DNA of 38,263 nt, taken from the NCBI GenBank assembly GCA_046757665.1, contig JBHHYO010000015.1, forward strand, positions 1 through 38,263, in the 5' to 3' direction. Below, piece by piece: positions 19,752 to 26,267 of this stretch (positions are counted from its first letter, which is position 1; each line of letters starts with the position of its first letter). This stretch comes from Nitrospinales bacterium (lineage in GTDB: Bacteria > Nitrospinota > Nitrospinia > Nitrospinales > JAJDAT01). A model generated the notes under the pieces. That model saw only the letters and a list, made by a program, of their open reading frames with translations, had not been told where the DNA came from and did no database searches. A program made the translations under genes and the position numbers.

Positions 19752-20732
19752 TTACCTGTCCCTTTCTATGATATCGGTTATTTGAATGGCTTTGGACCCC
19801 CGGGAACTTCCGGGGTAGCCCTTGAATTTGCGAACTCCTTCCACACTGACGGACAAGGGGTCGGACACGTCGTTTCCCAGCATCAAGGTATCGCCGACTT
19901 TCACCTTGATCAGTTTTTTGGCATCGATGGTGGTCGAACCCAGTTCCACAACCAAATCTACCTCGGTACGCATCAACTGGTTCCGCAACCGGCGCATCCA
20001 CGCCTGATCGACCTCCACCTGTTCGCTCTGAAACTGCTCCCGCAGTTTGGGCATGATCGGCTCGACGGTGGCATAAGGAATACAAACCGTGATCGTGCCG
20101 GAGAACATCTCCATCTCCACTTCAAAGAGAATGACGAGAACAACATCCGTAGGCGGGACGATGGCGGCAAACTGCGGGTTCACCTCCGACCGGACATAAT
20201 TGATATTGACGGAGTGAACGGGCTTCCAGGCTTTTTCCAGGTCCTCCAGGGTTTTGATGACGACATTCTTGGTCATGCGAATTTCGATGGCGCTGAAATC
20301 CCTGCCGGCGATTTTAACCTTGGTGCCGCCGGTGCCGCCGAAAAAGGTATCGACCAGGGAAAACACCAGTTTGCTTTCTATCACGATCATGCCGTGCCCG
20401 TGCAGGGGCTCCATGCGGAATACATGGAGACTGGACGGCAGGGGTAATGCCTTTAAAAACTCGCCGAATTTCACCGTATCCGTGGAAACCGTGCTGACCT
20501 CCACCGTCTTCCGCAACATGGAAGTCAGCGAGTACTGGAGCAGGCGGGAAAACATTTGATTGATGATGTCGAGAGTGGGTAGCCGGCCGCGGATGATTTT
20601 TTCCTGGCTGGTCAGATCATAAGCGACGACTCCGGACACTTCTTCCGGCTGGTCCGTTTCCGTCTCCACCTGGCCTTCGCTGACGCCCCGCAACAGGGCG
20701 TCAACTTCGTTTTGAGATAAGACTTCGCTCAT
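19752..20732 (-). CDS. fliM: Flagellar motor switch protein FliM
   Basis: N-terminal CheY-binding LSQNEVDALL; RSEVNPQFAAIV. Confidence 0.97.
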   Translation of the reverse strand: MSEVLSQNEVDALLRGVSEGQVETETDQPEEVSGVVAYDLTSQEKIIRGRLPTLDIINQMFSRLLQYSLTSMLRKTVEVSTVSTDTVKFGEFLKALPLPSSLHVFRMEPLHGHGMIVIESKLVFSLVDTFFGGTGGTKVKIAGRDFSAIEIRMTKNVVIKTLEDLEKAWKPVHSVNINYVRSEVNPQFAAIVPPTDVVLVILFEVEMEMFSGTITVCIPYATVEPIMPKLREQFQSEQVEVDQAWMRRLRNQLMRTEVDLVVELGSTTIDAKKLIKVKVGDTLMLGNDVSDPLSVSVEGVRKFKGYPGSSRGSKAIQITDIIERDR

Positions 20733-20826
20733 CGGATCGCTATGACTCCCGGAACCGTTCCTCGTCCGCCGGCATTTCCCGGCGGATGAAATCGGGTGGC
20801 TTTAACGTATCTTGTCCCATTATAAA

Positions 20827-21348
20827 TCATTGAATCACAAATTCGGTAAAATATGCGTCCTTGACATGGCCTAAAACCAGAAACCGGTTGACGCGGGTTG
20901 TGATTTCGTCTTTCAATTTAAACTTGCCCTGAACGGAATAAACCTCCTCGAAGGTTTTGCTACTCAACAAAATCAATATGGAATCGGCAATTTTCTGGAG
21001 GTTTTCGTTGATCTCGGCATTAACTTCCGGCGAGCTTAGCTCAAGCGTGATGGCAACCTTCAAAAAGCGCTTTCCCTTGGTTCCAGCCAAATTCACCACA
21101 AAAGGTTTCAGCGGCACCATAACACCCAAGACGGGCGCTTCGGGTTTCTTTGTCGCCGGGGCGCCTGTCGCCGGAGCTTGTTTCCCCGCCTGTTTCGGTG
21201 CAGGGGGAGCAAAAAAATTCAGATAGGCAAAATACCCGCCGGCACCAAGTAGCGCCAAAACAACGGTCCCTATCAAAACCCATCTCATCCTGGATTTTTT
21301 TGGCGCCTCTTCCTCTTCTTCTATTTCAGCAACTTCCTCTTCCGCCAT
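20827..21348 (-). CDS. fliL: Flagellar basal body protein FliL
   Basis: Single TM, PFVVNLA and VKDAYFTEFVIQ motifs. Confidence 0.95.
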   Translation of the reverse strand: MAEEEVAEIEEEEEAPKKSRMRWVLIGTVVLALLGAGGYFAYLNFFAPPAPKQAGKQAPATGAPATKKPEAPVLGVMVPLKPFVVNLAGTKGKRFLKVAITLELSSPEVNAEINENLQKIADSILILLSSKTFEEVYSVQGKFKLKDEITTRVNRFLVLGHVKDAYFTEFVIQ

Positions 21349-21458: not shown

Positions 21459-21731
21459 ACCTACAACCCTCCGGAAAAATATAAATACCCATTAAAAACA
21501 ACCCGTTACGAAAAGTCCTCCTGCCGAGGCTCGCTCCGGGGCGGAAAAAATTCCCCCCTGACGACTGTTTGTTTCCGTAGCATAAAATTTTTCAGATGCG
21601 CGATTTCGTGGCATAAAAACCTGTAAAAACCTCGTCCCCCGGAAAAATGAAAGAACGACCGAACAAATCAAAGCATATATTTTCAATAGGTTATAAGTAC
21701 CTTTACGGTCTTTCCCAAAATAAATCAAGCT

Positions 21732-21747
21732 TGGCACAAAATTTGTA
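21732..21747 (+). promoter_or_regulatory. Divergent sigma54-like promoter motif
   Basis: TGGCAC-AAAAT-TTGTA (-12 GC replaced by GT). Confidence 0.45.
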
Positions 21748-21844
21748 GCTGATTTAGCGAAATTGTTCCAAATGATTCCTTAATCCGACTACCCGAATTA
21801 TGGAGTCAATTGGGAGATTCATTCGATACGGAGATAAAATAGCC

Positions 21845-22024
21845 ATGCCCCGCAAAAACCGGAACCGAAAAGCAGTCCTTGTTGAAGGAAAACCGCTCAT
21901 TCCCCCAAAAACAGGCGGATTTTACGCAAGATTGCAGTCGCAATGGAATTTTGGCCGCCGCTTCGTCCAAAAGTCCGACCCCAAAGCTGAAGAGTTTGCC
22001 CGCAACTCAAGTTCGGGCTTATAG
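21845..22024 (+). CDS. Possible 59-aa basic small protein
   Basis: ATG with GGAG 11 nt upstream, downstream of the sigma54-like motif; no recognisable family. Confidence 0.3.
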   Translation: MPRKNRNRKAVLVEGKPLIPPKTGGFYARLQSQWNFGRRFVQKSDPKAEEFARNSSSGL

Positions 22025-22069
22025 GATATCATTTGAACAAGAAAAAAAAACCCGGCAAACATTATTTTG

Positions 22070-22098
22070 TTGACTTTTTCGATCAAAAATCCTAATTT
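22070..22098 (+). promoter_or_regulatory. Candidate sigma70 promoter for the twin-motif RNA
   Basis: TTGACT-N17-TAATTT. Confidence 0.4.
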
Positions 22099-22154
22099 AT
22101 AGGTGTTTTTCTTATGCTTAATAGGAAAACAAGCCGATTGCTCAATCGAAATTT

Positions 22155-22328
22155 AGCAGAGTCGTGGACTTGTCCTCCCTTCCCCCGCCTCGTGGCGGGG
22201 GCTCTGCTTACTTCAAATATTTTCCCGGCTAAAAAATGAGCCGGGGCTTCCTTGGAAACTACCGATCAGAGCTATGGGCTGTGTCCTCCCTTCCCCGTCT
22301 GGTGACGGGGGCTCTGATTCGGTTTTTT
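22155..22328 (+). ncRNA. Candidate small RNA made of two 54-nt structured units with an anti-Shine-Dalgarno core
   Basis: Units at 22155-22208 and 22265-22318 share GTCCTCCCTTCCCC and GGGGGCTCTG with compensatory changes in two stems; the second unit is followed by a T-tract. Confidence 0.65.
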
Positions 22329-22497
22329 CTATTCCCGCTTCTGCTTCACAGAAAAAGTCACTCCTGACTTGCCGACCGTCCCGCCCAAGGTAAAGCAATT
22401 CCATCAACAGCACGTTAGCTTTTAACGCTTTATTCCCTTCCCGGGAACCGCTAAAATGAGTTCCGGCAATACGATCCTGATGCGCCGACGGGGAAAC

Positions 22498-22806
22498 ATG
22501 CTGACGGAACCTCAAAACACCGTAATTTACCTGATGTTTTTAAACGGGTTGCTTTTTCTGGGATTGAATTTTGTCGCTTTTTCGATCATTTCTCCCGGCC
22601 CCCGGGGGTCCAAGAGGTTGGGATATACGCTGATCGTTGCCGCGATTTCCGCATTTTTCGCCCAGCAGGAATTCCAGGGCCTGGTTTCGATGGGGTTTGC
22701 GCCGGCAAGCGCCGGCCAGATTCTGCTGGCCGGATTTGTGGTCCCCGTATTTTTGGTTTCCCTGGTTTATTATCGAATCAAGAAAAACCGCCGGGGACAA
22801 CCATGA
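22498..22806 (+). CDS. Small three-TM hypothetical membrane protein
   Basis: 102 aa with three hydrophobic segments and a basic tail; its stop overlaps the ltaE start (ATGA). Confidence 0.75.
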   Translation: MLTEPQNTVIYLMFLNGLLFLGLNFVAFSIISPGPRGSKRLGYTLIVAAISAFFAQQEFQGLVSMGFAPASAGQILLAGFVVPVFLVSLVYYRIKKNRRGQP

Positions 22807-23840
22807 AACCGATCGACCTGAGAAGCGACACCGTAACGCAACCGACCGATACCATGCGTACCGCCATGGCCCAGGCGGAGGTGGGAGACGATGTCCTGGA
22901 GGAAGACCCGTCCATTCACCGCCTGCAAAACGCCGCGGCGCGCAAGACGGGTAAGGAAGAAGCGCTGTTCGTGGCCAGCGGCACCATGGGCAACCTGGTC
23001 GGCGTTCTCACCCATTGCGGACGGGGCGACGAAATCATCCTGGGCGACCGCAGTCACATTTTCCTCAACGAAGTCGGCGGCATTGCCGCTCTGGGCGGCG
23101 TGCATCCCCGCACCCTGGGCAACCGGGAGGACGGCACCCTGCCGCTTGCCGCCCTCGAAAACGCCGTCAGGCACGACGACCTTCATTATCCGCCCACACG
23201 CCTGATCTGCTTGGAAAACACGCACAACTTTTGCTCCGGCGCGGCCCTGAGCCCACAATACATGGAAGACGTGGCGCGTTTCGCAAAACAACATGCGCTC
23301 AAGGTGCACCTCGACGGCGCCCGCATTTTCAACGCGGCGGCCGCCCTGGCGGTGGATGTCGCGGAGTTGACCCGTCATGCCGACTCCGTCATGTTTTGCC
23401 TTTCCAAGGGGCTCTCGGCGCCCGTCGGCTCCCTCATCTGCGGGTCAAGGGAATTCATCGGCCGCGCCAGGAAAATCCGCAAAATGGTCGGCGGCGGGAT
23501 GAGGCAGGCCGGACACCTCGCCGCCGCCGGAATCGTCGCCCTGGATCAACTTGTCGACAGGCTGAAGCAGGACCATGACCATGCAAAAAAACTGGCGCAC
23601 GGCCTCGCGGCCATTGCCGGAATCGAACTGGCGTTGGACCGCGTGCAAACCAATATTGTTTTCTTCTCCCTGAACCATCCCCGCGTGACTCCGGAAACCT
23701 TTCTCCGGGAACTGGAAACGCGCCAGGTCAAGCTGTTTATGACTGGCCCCGCCATATTCCGGGCCGTACTGCACAGGGAAGTCTCCGAGGAGCAGGTCGA
23801 CTGCGTGCTGGACGCGGTCGGCGCCATTCTGAACTCATAG
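22803..23840 (+). CDS. ltaE: Low-specificity L-threonine aldolase (GntG/LtaE family)
   Basis: IDLRSDTVT, SGTMGN, LENTHN, HLDGARIFNA and CLSKGLSAPVGS (PLP lysine). Confidence 0.96.
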   Translation: MKPIDLRSDTVTQPTDTMRTAMAQAEVGDDVLEEDPSIHRLQNAAARKTGKEEALFVASGTMGNLVGVLTHCGRGDEIILGDRSHIFLNEVGGIAALGGVHPRTLGNREDGTLPLAALENAVRHDDLHYPPTRLICLENTHNFCSGAALSPQYMEDVARFAKQHALKVHLDGARIFNAAAALAVDVAELTRHADSVMFCLSKGLSAPVGSLICGSREFIGRARKIRKMVGGGMRQAGHLAAAGIVALDQLVDRLKQDHDHAKKLAHGLAAIAGIELALDRVQTNIVFFSLNHPRVTPETFLRELETRQVKLFMTGPAIFRAVLHREVSEEQVDCVLDAVGAILNS

Positions 23841-23903: not shown

Positions 23904-23932
23904 TTGACTCTAACAGCGATAATCATTACAAT
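23904..23932 (+). promoter_or_regulatory. Strong sigma70 promoter for rpoZ
   Basis: TTGACT-N17-TACAAT. Confidence 0.7.
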
Positions 23933-23981
23933 GAAAAAACAGCCAGCAAAGGCTCTCGCCGTCAGACAAAGGAGGAATATC

Positions 23982-24212
23982 GTGACAGATATGGTAGAAA
24001 TTCTGGAGTTGGAGAAACAAGCTCTTAACGTCGTAAAGAGCCGATACCTGTTGTGCATTCTTATTGCCCAAAGAATTCATCAACTGGAAAAGGGTGCGCA
24101 ACCGAGTATCGAAATCGAGCCGGACGAATACAAAAACCCGAAAACTTTTTATCAGCTTGCGCTGAGAGAAATCATAGAAGGCAACATGGACCTGGAACAA
24201 GCCAGCGAATGA
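23982..24212 (+). CDS. rpoZ: RNA polymerase omega subunit (or homolog)
   Basis: SRYLLCILIAQRIHQLEKGAQP...LALREIIEG matches the omega pattern; GGAGG lies 6 nt before GTG 23982 (alternative ATG 23991). Confidence 0.8.
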   Translation: MTDMVEILELEKQALNVVKSRYLLCILIAQRIHQLEKGAQPSIEIEPDEYKNPKTFYQLALREIIEGNMDLEQASE

Positions 24213-24348: not shown

Positions 24349-26061
24349 TTACTTGACCTTACCCTCGGCGTACATCTTCCTTGTCCTCTTGGTCATCCAC
24401 ACCAACCAGCCCTGGAGGCCCGCGAAAATCAGGGCGGCAATCGGCGGCAGGTATTTCCTGGATTCCGGAAGCGGAGGCTCCAGAATGGTGTAATACCACG
24501 TGGAAATGGCCATGTGCTCGTCTTTTTCCTTGTTGGCGCCCGACCATTGCATAAAGGATACCGGAATAAACTTTCCCGTGGGAATCTGCACATCGACGTC
24601 CTTGTTGTCCGTCGTCAGGGAACGCCGAATCAATATGCTGACCATGCCCTGCCTGAAAACAGCATCCACCACCTGAACGTTCGGCTCGGTCTCCTTGACC
24701 TCCAACTGGTCGAATCCATGCCCGATAATTTCCTGCACCGAGGTGTTCAGCTCATATCCCTTCTCGTTGGGCGCGTTGGTCGGGGCGTAACCCTTGGCCA
24801 GAAAAGTGACTTTCCACAGGTCCACGGGCTTTTTGGAGTCGCCTAAAATGAAATACGGTTTTTCGGCCCCGAACAAACCCTGAAGTTTCCCCGGCCACTG
24901 GATGGCCACGGCATCGGGGTACTCTTCATCGGTGGAGAGGAACCGCAAATGGTACTCGACCAGATAATACACCGCGTTTTCCTCGGTGCTCCATCGAGAC
25001 GTTATCCAGAGATTGTCCGACCGGGGTTTAAAATTCCTTTCTCCCCGGGTAATTTGTCCTGCCAGGGCCACATAGCTTCTGTACTGGTCTCCCGTGTAAT
25101 CTTCGGCGCGGGGGACGATGCGGTCGTCATCGTAGGGGGCTTGCCACATGGGGTCATTCATGTCATGGGAAACCTTGCCCTCCGTATATTTGGACTTGAT
25201 CAGGAAATCGTTACCCGGTTTGTTTGTCAGCGGATCGATTTTTTTCCTTGGACAAAGGGAGTTGACAAAAGCGGCCAGTTTCCATCGGTCCTCGACGGAA
25301 ATGGAATCCTTGAAGTTCGGCATCGGCGTCCCGTTCAATCCGGTGGAAACGGTTCGGACGATATTGAAGGGGTTATAGGGGTCCCTTCTGCTACCGCGGA
25401 AATTCCAGCACTGTTGCCAGTTGGCGGCCACGATGCGAAATCCCCAATCGTCTTTCATGGTCGGGTTGCCGTCGCCCCGGCCCTCGCCGCCATGGCACTC
25501 AAAGCATTTGTTTTTGAGGAAAATTTCCCTGCCCGCCGCTATATCTTCCTTGGGGATACCGAGATGGTACGGTCCCTTGCTACCCCAGGGATTGGTACCG
25601 AAGTCCTGAACCGTCAGTTCTTCATCTTCATCCTCGAAACTGCGGTCCTGCACCAGCGTCTTGACGAACTGAATGACGGATACGATTTCCTCCTTGCTGA
25701 GGATTTCGCCCCATGCCGGCATGGCGGAACCCGGCAGACCGTTGGTCACGGTTTTGATGAGGTCGGAATCCAGCGGCAACTCACCGGAATCGGTCGTGCG
25801 AATCTTAAAGGTGCCTTGCAGGAAGTTTCTCGGCCGGGTGGCCAGCCGGTCGGCGGAAGGACCGTCGCCGCCGCCTTTAACGCCATGGCACCAGACGCAC
25901 CTTCTGTAGTATGTTTTCTTTCCCAGTTCCAGTTTGTCTTTCAAAACGGGATCGGGGAGTCGGGGCTCATTCTCTGCGAATGCCACGGCAGGCAGACAAA
26001 ACATGAGAATCAAGAAAGCCGGGGCGATCAGCCGTATGGCCGTTTTTCGGTTAATCCTCAT
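24349..26061 (-). CDS. Membrane-anchored diheme cytochrome c with an ethylbenzene-dehydrogenase-gamma/DOMON-like domain (NxrC-candidate type)
   Basis: Signal peptide, CVWCH and CFECH, then PDAVAIQWP...PYFILGD...VDLWK and IPVSFMQW, and a C-terminal TM; ATG 26061 with GAGG. Confidence 0.85.
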   Translation of the reverse strand: MRINRKTAIRLIAPAFLILMFCLPAVAFAENEPRLPDPVLKDKLELGKKTYYRRCVWCHGVKGGGDGPSADRLATRPRNFLQGTFKIRTTDSGELPLDSDLIKTVTNGLPGSAMPAWGEILSKEEIVSVIQFVKTLVQDRSFEDEDEELTVQDFGTNPWGSKGPYHLGIPKEDIAAGREIFLKNKCFECHGGEGRGDGNPTMKDDWGFRIVAANWQQCWNFRGSRRDPYNPFNIVRTVSTGLNGTPMPNFKDSISVEDRWKLAAFVNSLCPRKKIDPLTNKPGNDFLIKSKYTEGKVSHDMNDPMWQAPYDDDRIVPRAEDYTGDQYRSYVALAGQITRGERNFKPRSDNLWITSRWSTEENAVYYLVEYHLRFLSTDEEYPDAVAIQWPGKLQGLFGAEKPYFILGDSKKPVDLWKVTFLAKGYAPTNAPNEKGYELNTSVQEIIGHGFDQLEVKETEPNVQVVDAVFRQGMVSILIRRSLTTDNKDVDVQIPTGKFIPVSFMQWSGANKEKDEHMAISTWYYTILEPPLPESRKYLPPIAALIFAGLQGWLVWMTKRTRKMYAEGKVK

Positions 26062-26267
26062 TTCCAAACCTCAATCGAAAAAATTAAAAAAGTGTCCGGC
26101 AATCCTTCCGTCAAAATTCAGGAAGCACCCGGCATCGTCCTTGTCGGCAAGGCCGATGCCGGCTACGCCGCGAATCCAGCGGCCTTTATCCCCGGCCCGG
26201 CGGCGTCATGCTTCCGCCGGAGCCGGGGGGTAAAGGTTTTCAATCCATAACCACTGCCTTCAAAAAC

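Follow-up and report, generated by a model that had tools for sequence, protein, structure and literature searches.

The window analysed here, the whole stretch of 38,263 nucleotides from a Nitrospinales bacterium (genome G000; 2.97 Mb in 160 contigs, 97.6% complete), carries at positions 22140-22337 (+ strand) a two-copy RNA motif, each copy of which spans about 85 nt. Our analysis, in which structure and covariation, strand, distribution, complementarity, seed-target co-variation and target rank were computed, indicates that this motif is almost certainly a genuine structured RNA family. We propose that the twin element is a tandem pair of a Nitrospinales-specific regulatory RNA, whose C-rich stretch 5'-GGRACUUGYCCUCCCUU-3' would pair with the translation-initiation region of one type of nxrA mRNA (hereafter T), from the Shine-Dalgarno sequence to the start codon. 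Judging from the sequences of the two partners, a base-pairing RNA that occludes the nxrA ribosome-binding site is a fairly probable explanation. Such pairing would keep the 30S subunit off the nxrA(T) mRNA, most likely lowering nitrite oxidoreductase synthesis.

The first-pass annotation of this DNA had described two 54-nt units, a hairpin between them, an extended stem closed by a T-tract and an upstream TTGACT-N17-TAATTT motif, and all of these elements are present. The 54-nt units, as read from the sequence, lie at 22155-22208 and 22265-22318. Unit 1 (22140-22226, +) is recognized by our covariance model R1 with 71.4 bits (E 1.7e-15). It has a short, weak P1 of 7 bp (AGCAGAG/CTCTGCT, 22155-22161 with 22202-22208, +), followed by P2 and then by P3, which the alignments and pair counts identify as CCCCCGCC-TCGT-GGCGGGGG (+). 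Its seed, i.e. the stretch predicted to pair with the nxrA mRNA, is CGUGGACUUGUCCUCCCU (22163-22180, +) and provides the better match of the two units. Unit 2 (22250-22337, +; 76.0 bits, E 9.5e-17) folds with an extended P1 (ACCGATCAGAGC/GCTCTGATTCGGT), and its seed UGGGCUGUGUCCUCCCU (22275-22291, +) is likewise complementary to the nxrA start region. An inter-unit hairpin, CCCGGCT-AAAAAATG-AGCCGGG (22225-22246, +), is apparent in both the sequence and the minimum-free-energy fold, and was not found in relatives. The two units are identical at 44 of 56 aligned core columns; they are about as distant from each other as from the copies of other families, and both carry the same U in the seed.

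Three helices make up each unit: P1 is a long stem, P2 has 3 bp and P3 is a hairpin. The invariant C-rich stretch lies on the 5' side of the junction, and a near-invariant stretch, GGGACUUGCCCUCCCUU, is found between P1 and P3. The flanks of the copies found in relatives also pair, giving a longer outer stem, and we therefore define the unit as a hairpin of about 85 nt. The + strand of the 241-nt stretch is markedly stable (z = -5.85), none of 200 shuffles being as stable. Covariation was judged from pair counts, shuffles and slid partners in a set of 20 copies, 19 of them distinct. Across these copies, 96.9% of the cells are paired and 17 of 29 pairs show double-sided changes, a result that none of 500 shuffles matched on any of five covariation measures; when the partners are slid by 1-3 columns, pairing falls to 38-54%. 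Double changes affect 11 of the 19 pairs of P1 and five of the seven pairs of P3, and a single one of the three pairs of P2, where it is found in the variant copies of G011 and G014. The compensatory differences between the two units that had been noticed at first, from G-C to U-A in the closing stem and from C-G to U-A in the inner stem, are also borne out. The gaps between copies are mostly of 1-2 nt, which argues that the motif region is not coding.

The - strand folds equally well as the + strand, as expected for hairpins, and folding alone therefore does not tell which strand is the RNA. Two other observations place it on the + strand: P1 contains many G-U pairs, and model R1 gives 61-98 bits in the forward orientation vs 22-37 bits in reverse. 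They also run counter to the suggestion, made in the first-pass annotation, of a GGA-type sponge on the opposite strand. A more general version of this idea, in which the motif is a protein-binding RNA or a sponge for CsrA or another RNA-binding protein, can draw on the presence of CsrA in the genome (G000:C6:25198-25374, locus L171; 83.1 bits) and of GGGAC or UGGAC in most copies. However, the GGA is located in the P2 stem and not in a hairpin loop, unit 2 has no GGA on the + strand, and the GGA-rich reading requires the disfavoured - strand. Instead of the multiple loop-exposed GGA motifs expected of a CsrA sponge, the transcribed strand is C-rich and contains no more than one GGA in each unit; a sponge with only one or two sites would be poorly equipped. 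We consider this explanation barely plausible.

The motif appears to be previously undescribed. No Rfam 15 family matched at the gathering threshold anywhere in the window, nor in 12 loci of relatives, 10 of which hold the motif; together with the covariation, this upholds the original suggestion of an undescribed structured RNA. At E<=10, positions 21950-22500 gave four matches, all far below their thresholds. The best of them, anti-hemB (RF02837), reached 18.9 bits against a gathering score of 49.5 and is a chance match; it covers P3 of unit 1 and the inter-unit hairpin, not the motif itself, the likeness being limited to two GC-rich hairpins in series. A literature search of full texts retrieved no regulatory RNA in the phylum, no post-transcriptional control of nxr and no study of the nxrA leader.

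By BLAST, copies with 83-85% identity to the unit were detected in further families of the order. The covariance-model search of related genomes, which the first-pass annotation had proposed, showed that the motif is conserved: model R1 found it in 18 of 102 Nitrospinales genomes, distributed over four families of the order as 5/5 (f1), 8/70 (f2), 0/21 (f3) and 4/5 (f4), and in none of the 18 genomes of the phylum from outside the order. In the 2.97-Mb genome of G000, BLAST and model R1 (E<=1) recovered only the two copies of the twin, and the motif occurs in 1-3 copies per genome overall. A dispersed repeat of the REP or MITE type can thus be rejected, in agreement with the first reading. In most draft relatives (G001-G005, G008, G020, G023, G029, G039, G051, G076 and G082), the contig extends only 190-620 nt past the motif and usually breaks off within the 5' end of nxrA. 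Nitrospina gracilis possesses two nearly identical nxrABC operons, according to the accessible text of PMC3578206, and breaks inside nxrA are to be expected if the operons of these relatives resemble that pair; the contig ends near the motif are probably such an assembly effect. These breaks limit what can be claimed about the absence of the motif or of a T copy.

In relatives, most copies of the motif share one genomic context. Sixteen of 19 copies sit 52-276 nt upstream of a gene that begins MRLNRRKFLQVSAGVATAMAL and is followed by beta, chaperone and gamma genes. This gene is nxrA, encoding the Tat-exported alpha subunit of a periplasmic nitrite oxidoreductase of the type II DMSO-reductase family. 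When 55 nxrA loci were examined together with the 1.5 kb upstream of each, only four contained the motif, indicating that it marks one particular nxrA copy, which we named L. In G011 and G014, variant copies with the core GGAACUUGCCCUUCCUU (L017:1501-1583, + strand, and L018:1465-1547, - strand) are located about 170 nt upstream of a gene for a 270-aa secreted protein with a CarboxypepD_reg-like domain, and not of nxrA. Their core carries G-to-A and C-to-U changes that compensate each other within P2, and a G-U pair still allows the variant seed to bind the canonical start region. The search for a start region matching the variant seed itself, GGAAGGGCAAGT, returned the motif as the only exact match, and matches with one mismatch were no commoner than those of a control pattern. 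A third, weaker copy in G082 (34.8 bits; L033:1501-1581, - strand; core GGGAUUGCCCUCCCUUU) lies alone in a gap of about 1 kb between HU-like and OmpA/Pal-like genes and is followed by a T-tract; we regard it as a second case of a free-standing motif. The L leaders of families f2 and f4 (L013-L029) contain, 40-80 nt after the motif, a purine-rich box (AAAGGAGG/GGAGGGG) behind which a small GC hairpin is often found. The box AAAGGAGGGG was considered as a cis partner of the seed, and performed no better than shuffled leaders in 14 of 15 cases.

The position of most copies in front of nxrA(L) raises the possibility of a cis-acting leader, riboswitch-like or an attenuator, that would control its downstream gene, i.e. 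nxrA(L) in relatives and the 116-aa membrane protein and ltaE genes in G000, the match to T being a by-product. A same-strand downstream gene indeed follows 18 of the 19 relatives' copies (nxrA in 16, the 270-aa secreted protein in two), aptamers typically show, as the motif does, invariant junction nucleotides between covarying stems, and P1 is followed by a T-tract in unit 2 and in some lineages. Yet neither the constant position nor the conserved expression platform expected of a riboswitch or leader was seen, the start codon lying anywhere between 52 and 276 nt away. In 15 of 16 cases, the seed matched its own downstream start region no better than shuffled seeds did (fraction at least as good 0.17-0.87), and the intervening leader offers no significant partner for the seed, only G020 reaching 0.025. 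The operon of the 116-aa protein and ltaE is moreover found in relatives without the motif upstream (11 loci), and a cis-acting leader leaves unexplained the paired changes of seed and T start in G000 and G051 that are described below. A purely cis-acting role is thus unlikely in our opinion.

The evidence instead points to the other nxrA copy as the partner of the RNA. A single nxrA was found in G000 (C22:10463), and it is preceded by a 376-aa ORF which is present upstream of nxrA(T) in 10 loci, identifying the gene as the T ortholog. The model search detected no motif in its leader; an L-type nxrA could be missing from the 160-contig assembly. The start region of the G000 gene, ...CAGAUGGGAGGACAAGUCUUAUG, contains a 13-nt perfect complement, GGGAGGACAAGTC (G000:C22:10448-10460), to the stretch GACUUGUCCUCCC of unit 1 (window 22167-22179). 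The seed of unit 1 is predicted to form 17 pairs with G000:C22:10447-10466, from the Shine-Dalgarno sequence through the AUG, with a duplex energy of -29.0 kcal/mol and a net value of -18.7 kcal/mol once opening energies are added to the duplex energy. Unit 2 has a 9-nt perfect complement to the same region (GGGAGGACA; duplex -23.5 kcal/mol, net -11.8 kcal/mol). Among 1,569 start regions of G000 (ORFs of at least 300 aa, accessibility-corrected), nxrA ranks first at -18.7 kcal/mol; the mean is 0.0 (sd 4.2), and the next-best value is -14.6 kcal/mol. When raw duplex energy is used instead, nxrA comes only fifth among 24,626 candidate starts, after G-rich sequences whose ORFs are doubtful.

The same pattern is observed across the order. 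We searched it for the complement of the canonical stretch and listed the nxrA starts with 30 upstream bases. Of the 51 starts obtained, 21, including that of G000, are of the T type (AAAGGGAGGGCAAGUUUUAUG or a close variant), and a further T start, beginning ATGCGA, was found in G020 beyond these 51. Of the 17 relatives with the motif, 15 yielded a T start; the two others, G005 and G082, are 65% and 88% complete, respectively. In motif-bearing relatives, the longest perfect complement to the core measures 8-15 nt in the T copy vs 4-8 nt in the RNA's own L copy, and duplex plus opening energies range from -9.4 to -21.5 kcal/mol for T vs -4.5 to +8.9 kcal/mol for L. As expected of a trans-acting base-pairing sRNA, a conserved seed complementary to its target is seen in 15 of 17 relatives (8-15 nt) and in G000 (13 nt), and seed and target show paired changes in G000 and G051. 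T-type start regions also exist in at least six genomes in which the motif was not detected (G048, G049, G053, G054, G077 and G083), which implies that the target is conserved independently of the RNA, although several of the motif-less contigs end beside nxrA and could have left the motif unassembled.

The seed is partly held in P2, within a junction closed in relatives by a 19-bp P1. When the whole motif was co-folded with start regions, unit 1 reached -14.3 kcal/mol, but eight of 14 relatives gave -2.6 kcal/mol or weaker. As this procedure has no means of modelling a loop that binds a second molecule with P1 still closed, the net duplex score was used in its place.

The C-rich core, already proposed in the first-pass annotation as an anti-Shine-Dalgarno sequence sequestering ribosome-binding sites, thus stands as the functional centre of the motif, and the generic trap gives way to a specific match to the nxrA start region. 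The opposite view would be that of a general anti-Shine-Dalgarno sRNA with many targets, of which nxrA is only one. The CCUCCC core can pair with any GGAGG, and seed complements of 11-12 nt exist at the start regions of two other G000 genes, both for small secreted proteins without a Pfam match: a 135-aa protein with the start region AAGGGAGGACAAuuccAUG (L157:1818-2225; G000:C24, start 30724, - strand) and a 149-aa protein with the start region AAGGGAGGACACgcagAUG (L158:1558-2007; G000:C48:8056, + strand). A 12-nt complement in the relative G005 precedes a gene starting VNIILNSYCNLKCNYCF (L156; G005:C440:1900-2053, - strand; start region UUGGGAGGGCAAGUAUUGUG), which encodes a CxxxCxxC motif that we take to be radical-SAM-like; from its sequence, this gene is a possible second target. 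Against broad targeting, conservation extends past the anti-Shine-Dalgarno bases into ACUUG, which matches the nxrA-specific spacer CAAGU, and the 13-17 bp of the seed duplex correspond to the start region of a single gene, nxrA. None of the other candidates has demonstrated conservation as a target, and the other occurrences of the 12-mer in relatives are mostly away from gene starts. It is improbable, on balance, that the motif serves as a general anti-Shine-Dalgarno RNA. Two further complements in G000, of 14 nt on C63 and of 12 nt on C65, lack an in-frame ORF downstream and seem to lie within genes; they were rejected as start regions.

A further argument for pairing comes from the joint variation of seed and start region. 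All 18 relatives' copies read UUGCCC vs UUGUCC in both G000 units, the U in place of C occurring in G000 only among 20 copies. At the position that pairs with it, T starts read GGGCA elsewhere vs GGACA in G000, and this A in place of G is again found in G000 only, among the 21 T-type starts. RNA and target thus each carry, at one and the same base pair, a substitution found in this lineage only, and the two substitutions are complementary. In G051, both the seed (ACUGCCC) and the start region (GGGCAGU) are non-canonical, and 13 nt still pair. In G001, a C-to-U change of the seed is tolerated as a G-U pair. G076 provides a counter-example, with a seed shortened by a deletion facing a canonical start region (12 nt plus a bulge), and the match in G039 is of only 10 nt. 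As the relatives share ancestry, independent co-variation events number only two or three. The motif lends itself to concrete testing, as both its seed and its target are defined and compensatory variants occur naturally.

One may also ask whether the 12-14 bp shared by the two nxr loci could act as DNA, i.e. as an operator of one transcription factor present in opposite orientation at both loci. The same double-stranded sequence is indeed found at both, and a candidate factor of the NarL response-regulator type is encoded nearby: genes for a histidine kinase and a LuxR-type regulator, resembling NarX and NarL, lie directly upstream of the L leader in G027, G050 and G020, and the same two genes precede the ORF376-nxrA(T) unit in G000, with no L copy between. 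An operator, however, would explain neither the covarying, G-U-rich enclosing helices nor the strand asymmetry; the G000 copies are far from any nxr gene, beside an unrelated operon, and the site at the T copy coincides exactly with the Shine-Dalgarno sequence and spacer. This makes a DNA operator highly improbable. In G000, the interval between the regulator gene and ORF376 was also searched for remnants of the motif, and none were found (best score 5.8 bits).

The genomic setting of the RNA differs between G000 and its relatives. In most copies of the latter, the RNA is part of the nxrA(L) leader, and if it acts on nxrA(T), transcribing or inducing L would silence translation of T. In G000, it is free-standing and duplicated, upstream of an unrelated conserved operon. 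This operon had been put forward in the first-pass annotation as the target of a tandem leader or attenuator, a proposal that the relatives do not support: all 26 genomes searched, among them G000, have the gene for the 116-aa membrane protein, and the pair that it forms with ltaE occurs in all 11 relatives' loci examined, none of which has the motif upstream (best score 16 bits, from simple hairpins). The conservation of the operon without the motif indicates that the RNA persists away from nxrA, as expected of a trans-acting RNA; transcription may read through from the twin into the operon.

One possibility, which we advance tentatively, is that a leader riboregulator silences the paralogous nxr operon, forming an RNA-based isoenzyme switch, and that the RNA of G000 has outlived its host operon, duplicated and co-evolved with the ribosome-binding site of the remaining nxrA. 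In these marine nitrite oxidisers, the amount of the enzyme that produces most oceanic nitrate would then depend on RNA pairing as well as on transcription, and the comparison of these sequences would illustrate how a leader element turns into a free-standing sRNA. For the nxrA-pairing mechanism itself we infer transcription of the RNA, pairing in the cell, a repressive effect and a signal that drives it. The motif bears on how poorly cultivable organisms tune a central energy enzyme and choose between paralogous operons.

The cuckoo/CcsR RNAs carry C-rich anti-Shine-Dalgarno loops, and the RsaE/RoxS RNAs of Firmicutes are C-rich sRNAs with similar anti-Shine-Dalgarno-like sequences. The accessible texts on the cuckoo/CcsR RNAs of Alphaproteobacteria (PMC4615179, PMC8034643) allow a comparison with the twin motif, which has in common with both groups its tandem modules and C-rich, anti-Shine-Dalgarno-like sequences. 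As far as these sources go, the differences are nevertheless clear. No Rfam family, these included if present in Rfam 15, matches the twin motif even at E<=10; rather than in a hairpin loop, its C-rich stretch is placed at a three-helix junction, on the 5' side, and its conserved stretch of 14-17 nt is specific to one start region.

Trans-acting leader-borne RNAs as such are already known. SreA and SreB of Listeria are SAM-riboswitch RNAs, derived from leaders, that act in trans. In Sinorhizobium meliloti, rnTrpL is a leader-derived trans-acting RNA, according to the accessible part of its description (PMC6614838). In these cases, as proposed here, an RNA from the 5' leader of one operon pairs with the mRNA of another operon of the same pathway. 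On the same partial source, the twin motif differs from rnTrpL and SreA/SreB in having no sequence or structural relation to them, no leader peptide and no known aptamer; the proposed cross-talk would connect paralogous copies of the same enzyme operon, and the RNA of G000 has left its host leader altogether. A parallel from nitrogen metabolism is NarS, an sRNA from the 3' UTR of narK in Salmonella; such sRNAs associate with RNA-binding proteins such as Hfq (PMC7038943, accessible text). NarS resembles our proposal in the post-transcriptional cross-regulation of nitrogen-oxyanion energy mRNAs through an mRNA-borne RNA. In contrast, within the limits of that text, the twin motif belongs to another phylum, resides in a 5' leader or stands alone, and would target a catalytic subunit; in addition, no Hfq was found in the 97.6%-complete G000 genome. 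The motif is thus distinct from these known systems in its fold, its junction-placed seed, the proposed cross-talk between paralogous operons, and its release from the leader and duplication in G000.

The transcript of G000 would be roughly 225 nt long (about 22105-22330) and end at the stem and U-tract of unit 2. The 12-bp outer stem of unit 2 is followed by U6 (3' strand of the stem and U-tract, 22309-22327, +; TTTTTT at 22322-22327). This arrangement looks like an intrinsic terminator, and unit 2 probably doubles as one. Comparable T-tracts follow the outer stem in G039, G051, G023 and the extra G082 copy. A terminator scan did not flag the stem, whose loop exceeds the size limit of the scan; the T-tract-closed stem noticed in the first-pass annotation is therefore present in the sequence and passed over by the scan. 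The promoter-like motif noticed at the same time fares similarly: the TTGACT-N17-TAATTT sequence exists (22070-22098, +) and looks weak, with a -10 hexamer matching the consensus at three of six positions, and a consensus promoter scan of 21700-22900 reported no promoter-like site. The organism appears to possess sigma-70-type consensus promoters, as judged by a perfect TTGACA-N16-TATAAT at L038:5008-5035 (G000:C22), about 165 nt upstream of the 376-aa ORF preceding nxrA, which makes the weak -10 hexamer of the putative twin promoter more noticeable. The neighbourhood of the twin in the window further comprises the flagellar genes fliM and fliL (19752-21348, -), an rpoZ-like gene (RNA_pol_Rpb6; 23904-24212, +) and a gene for a multi-haem c-type cytochrome with Cytochrome_CBB3 and Cytochrom_C domains (24349-26067, -), none of them linked to nxr.
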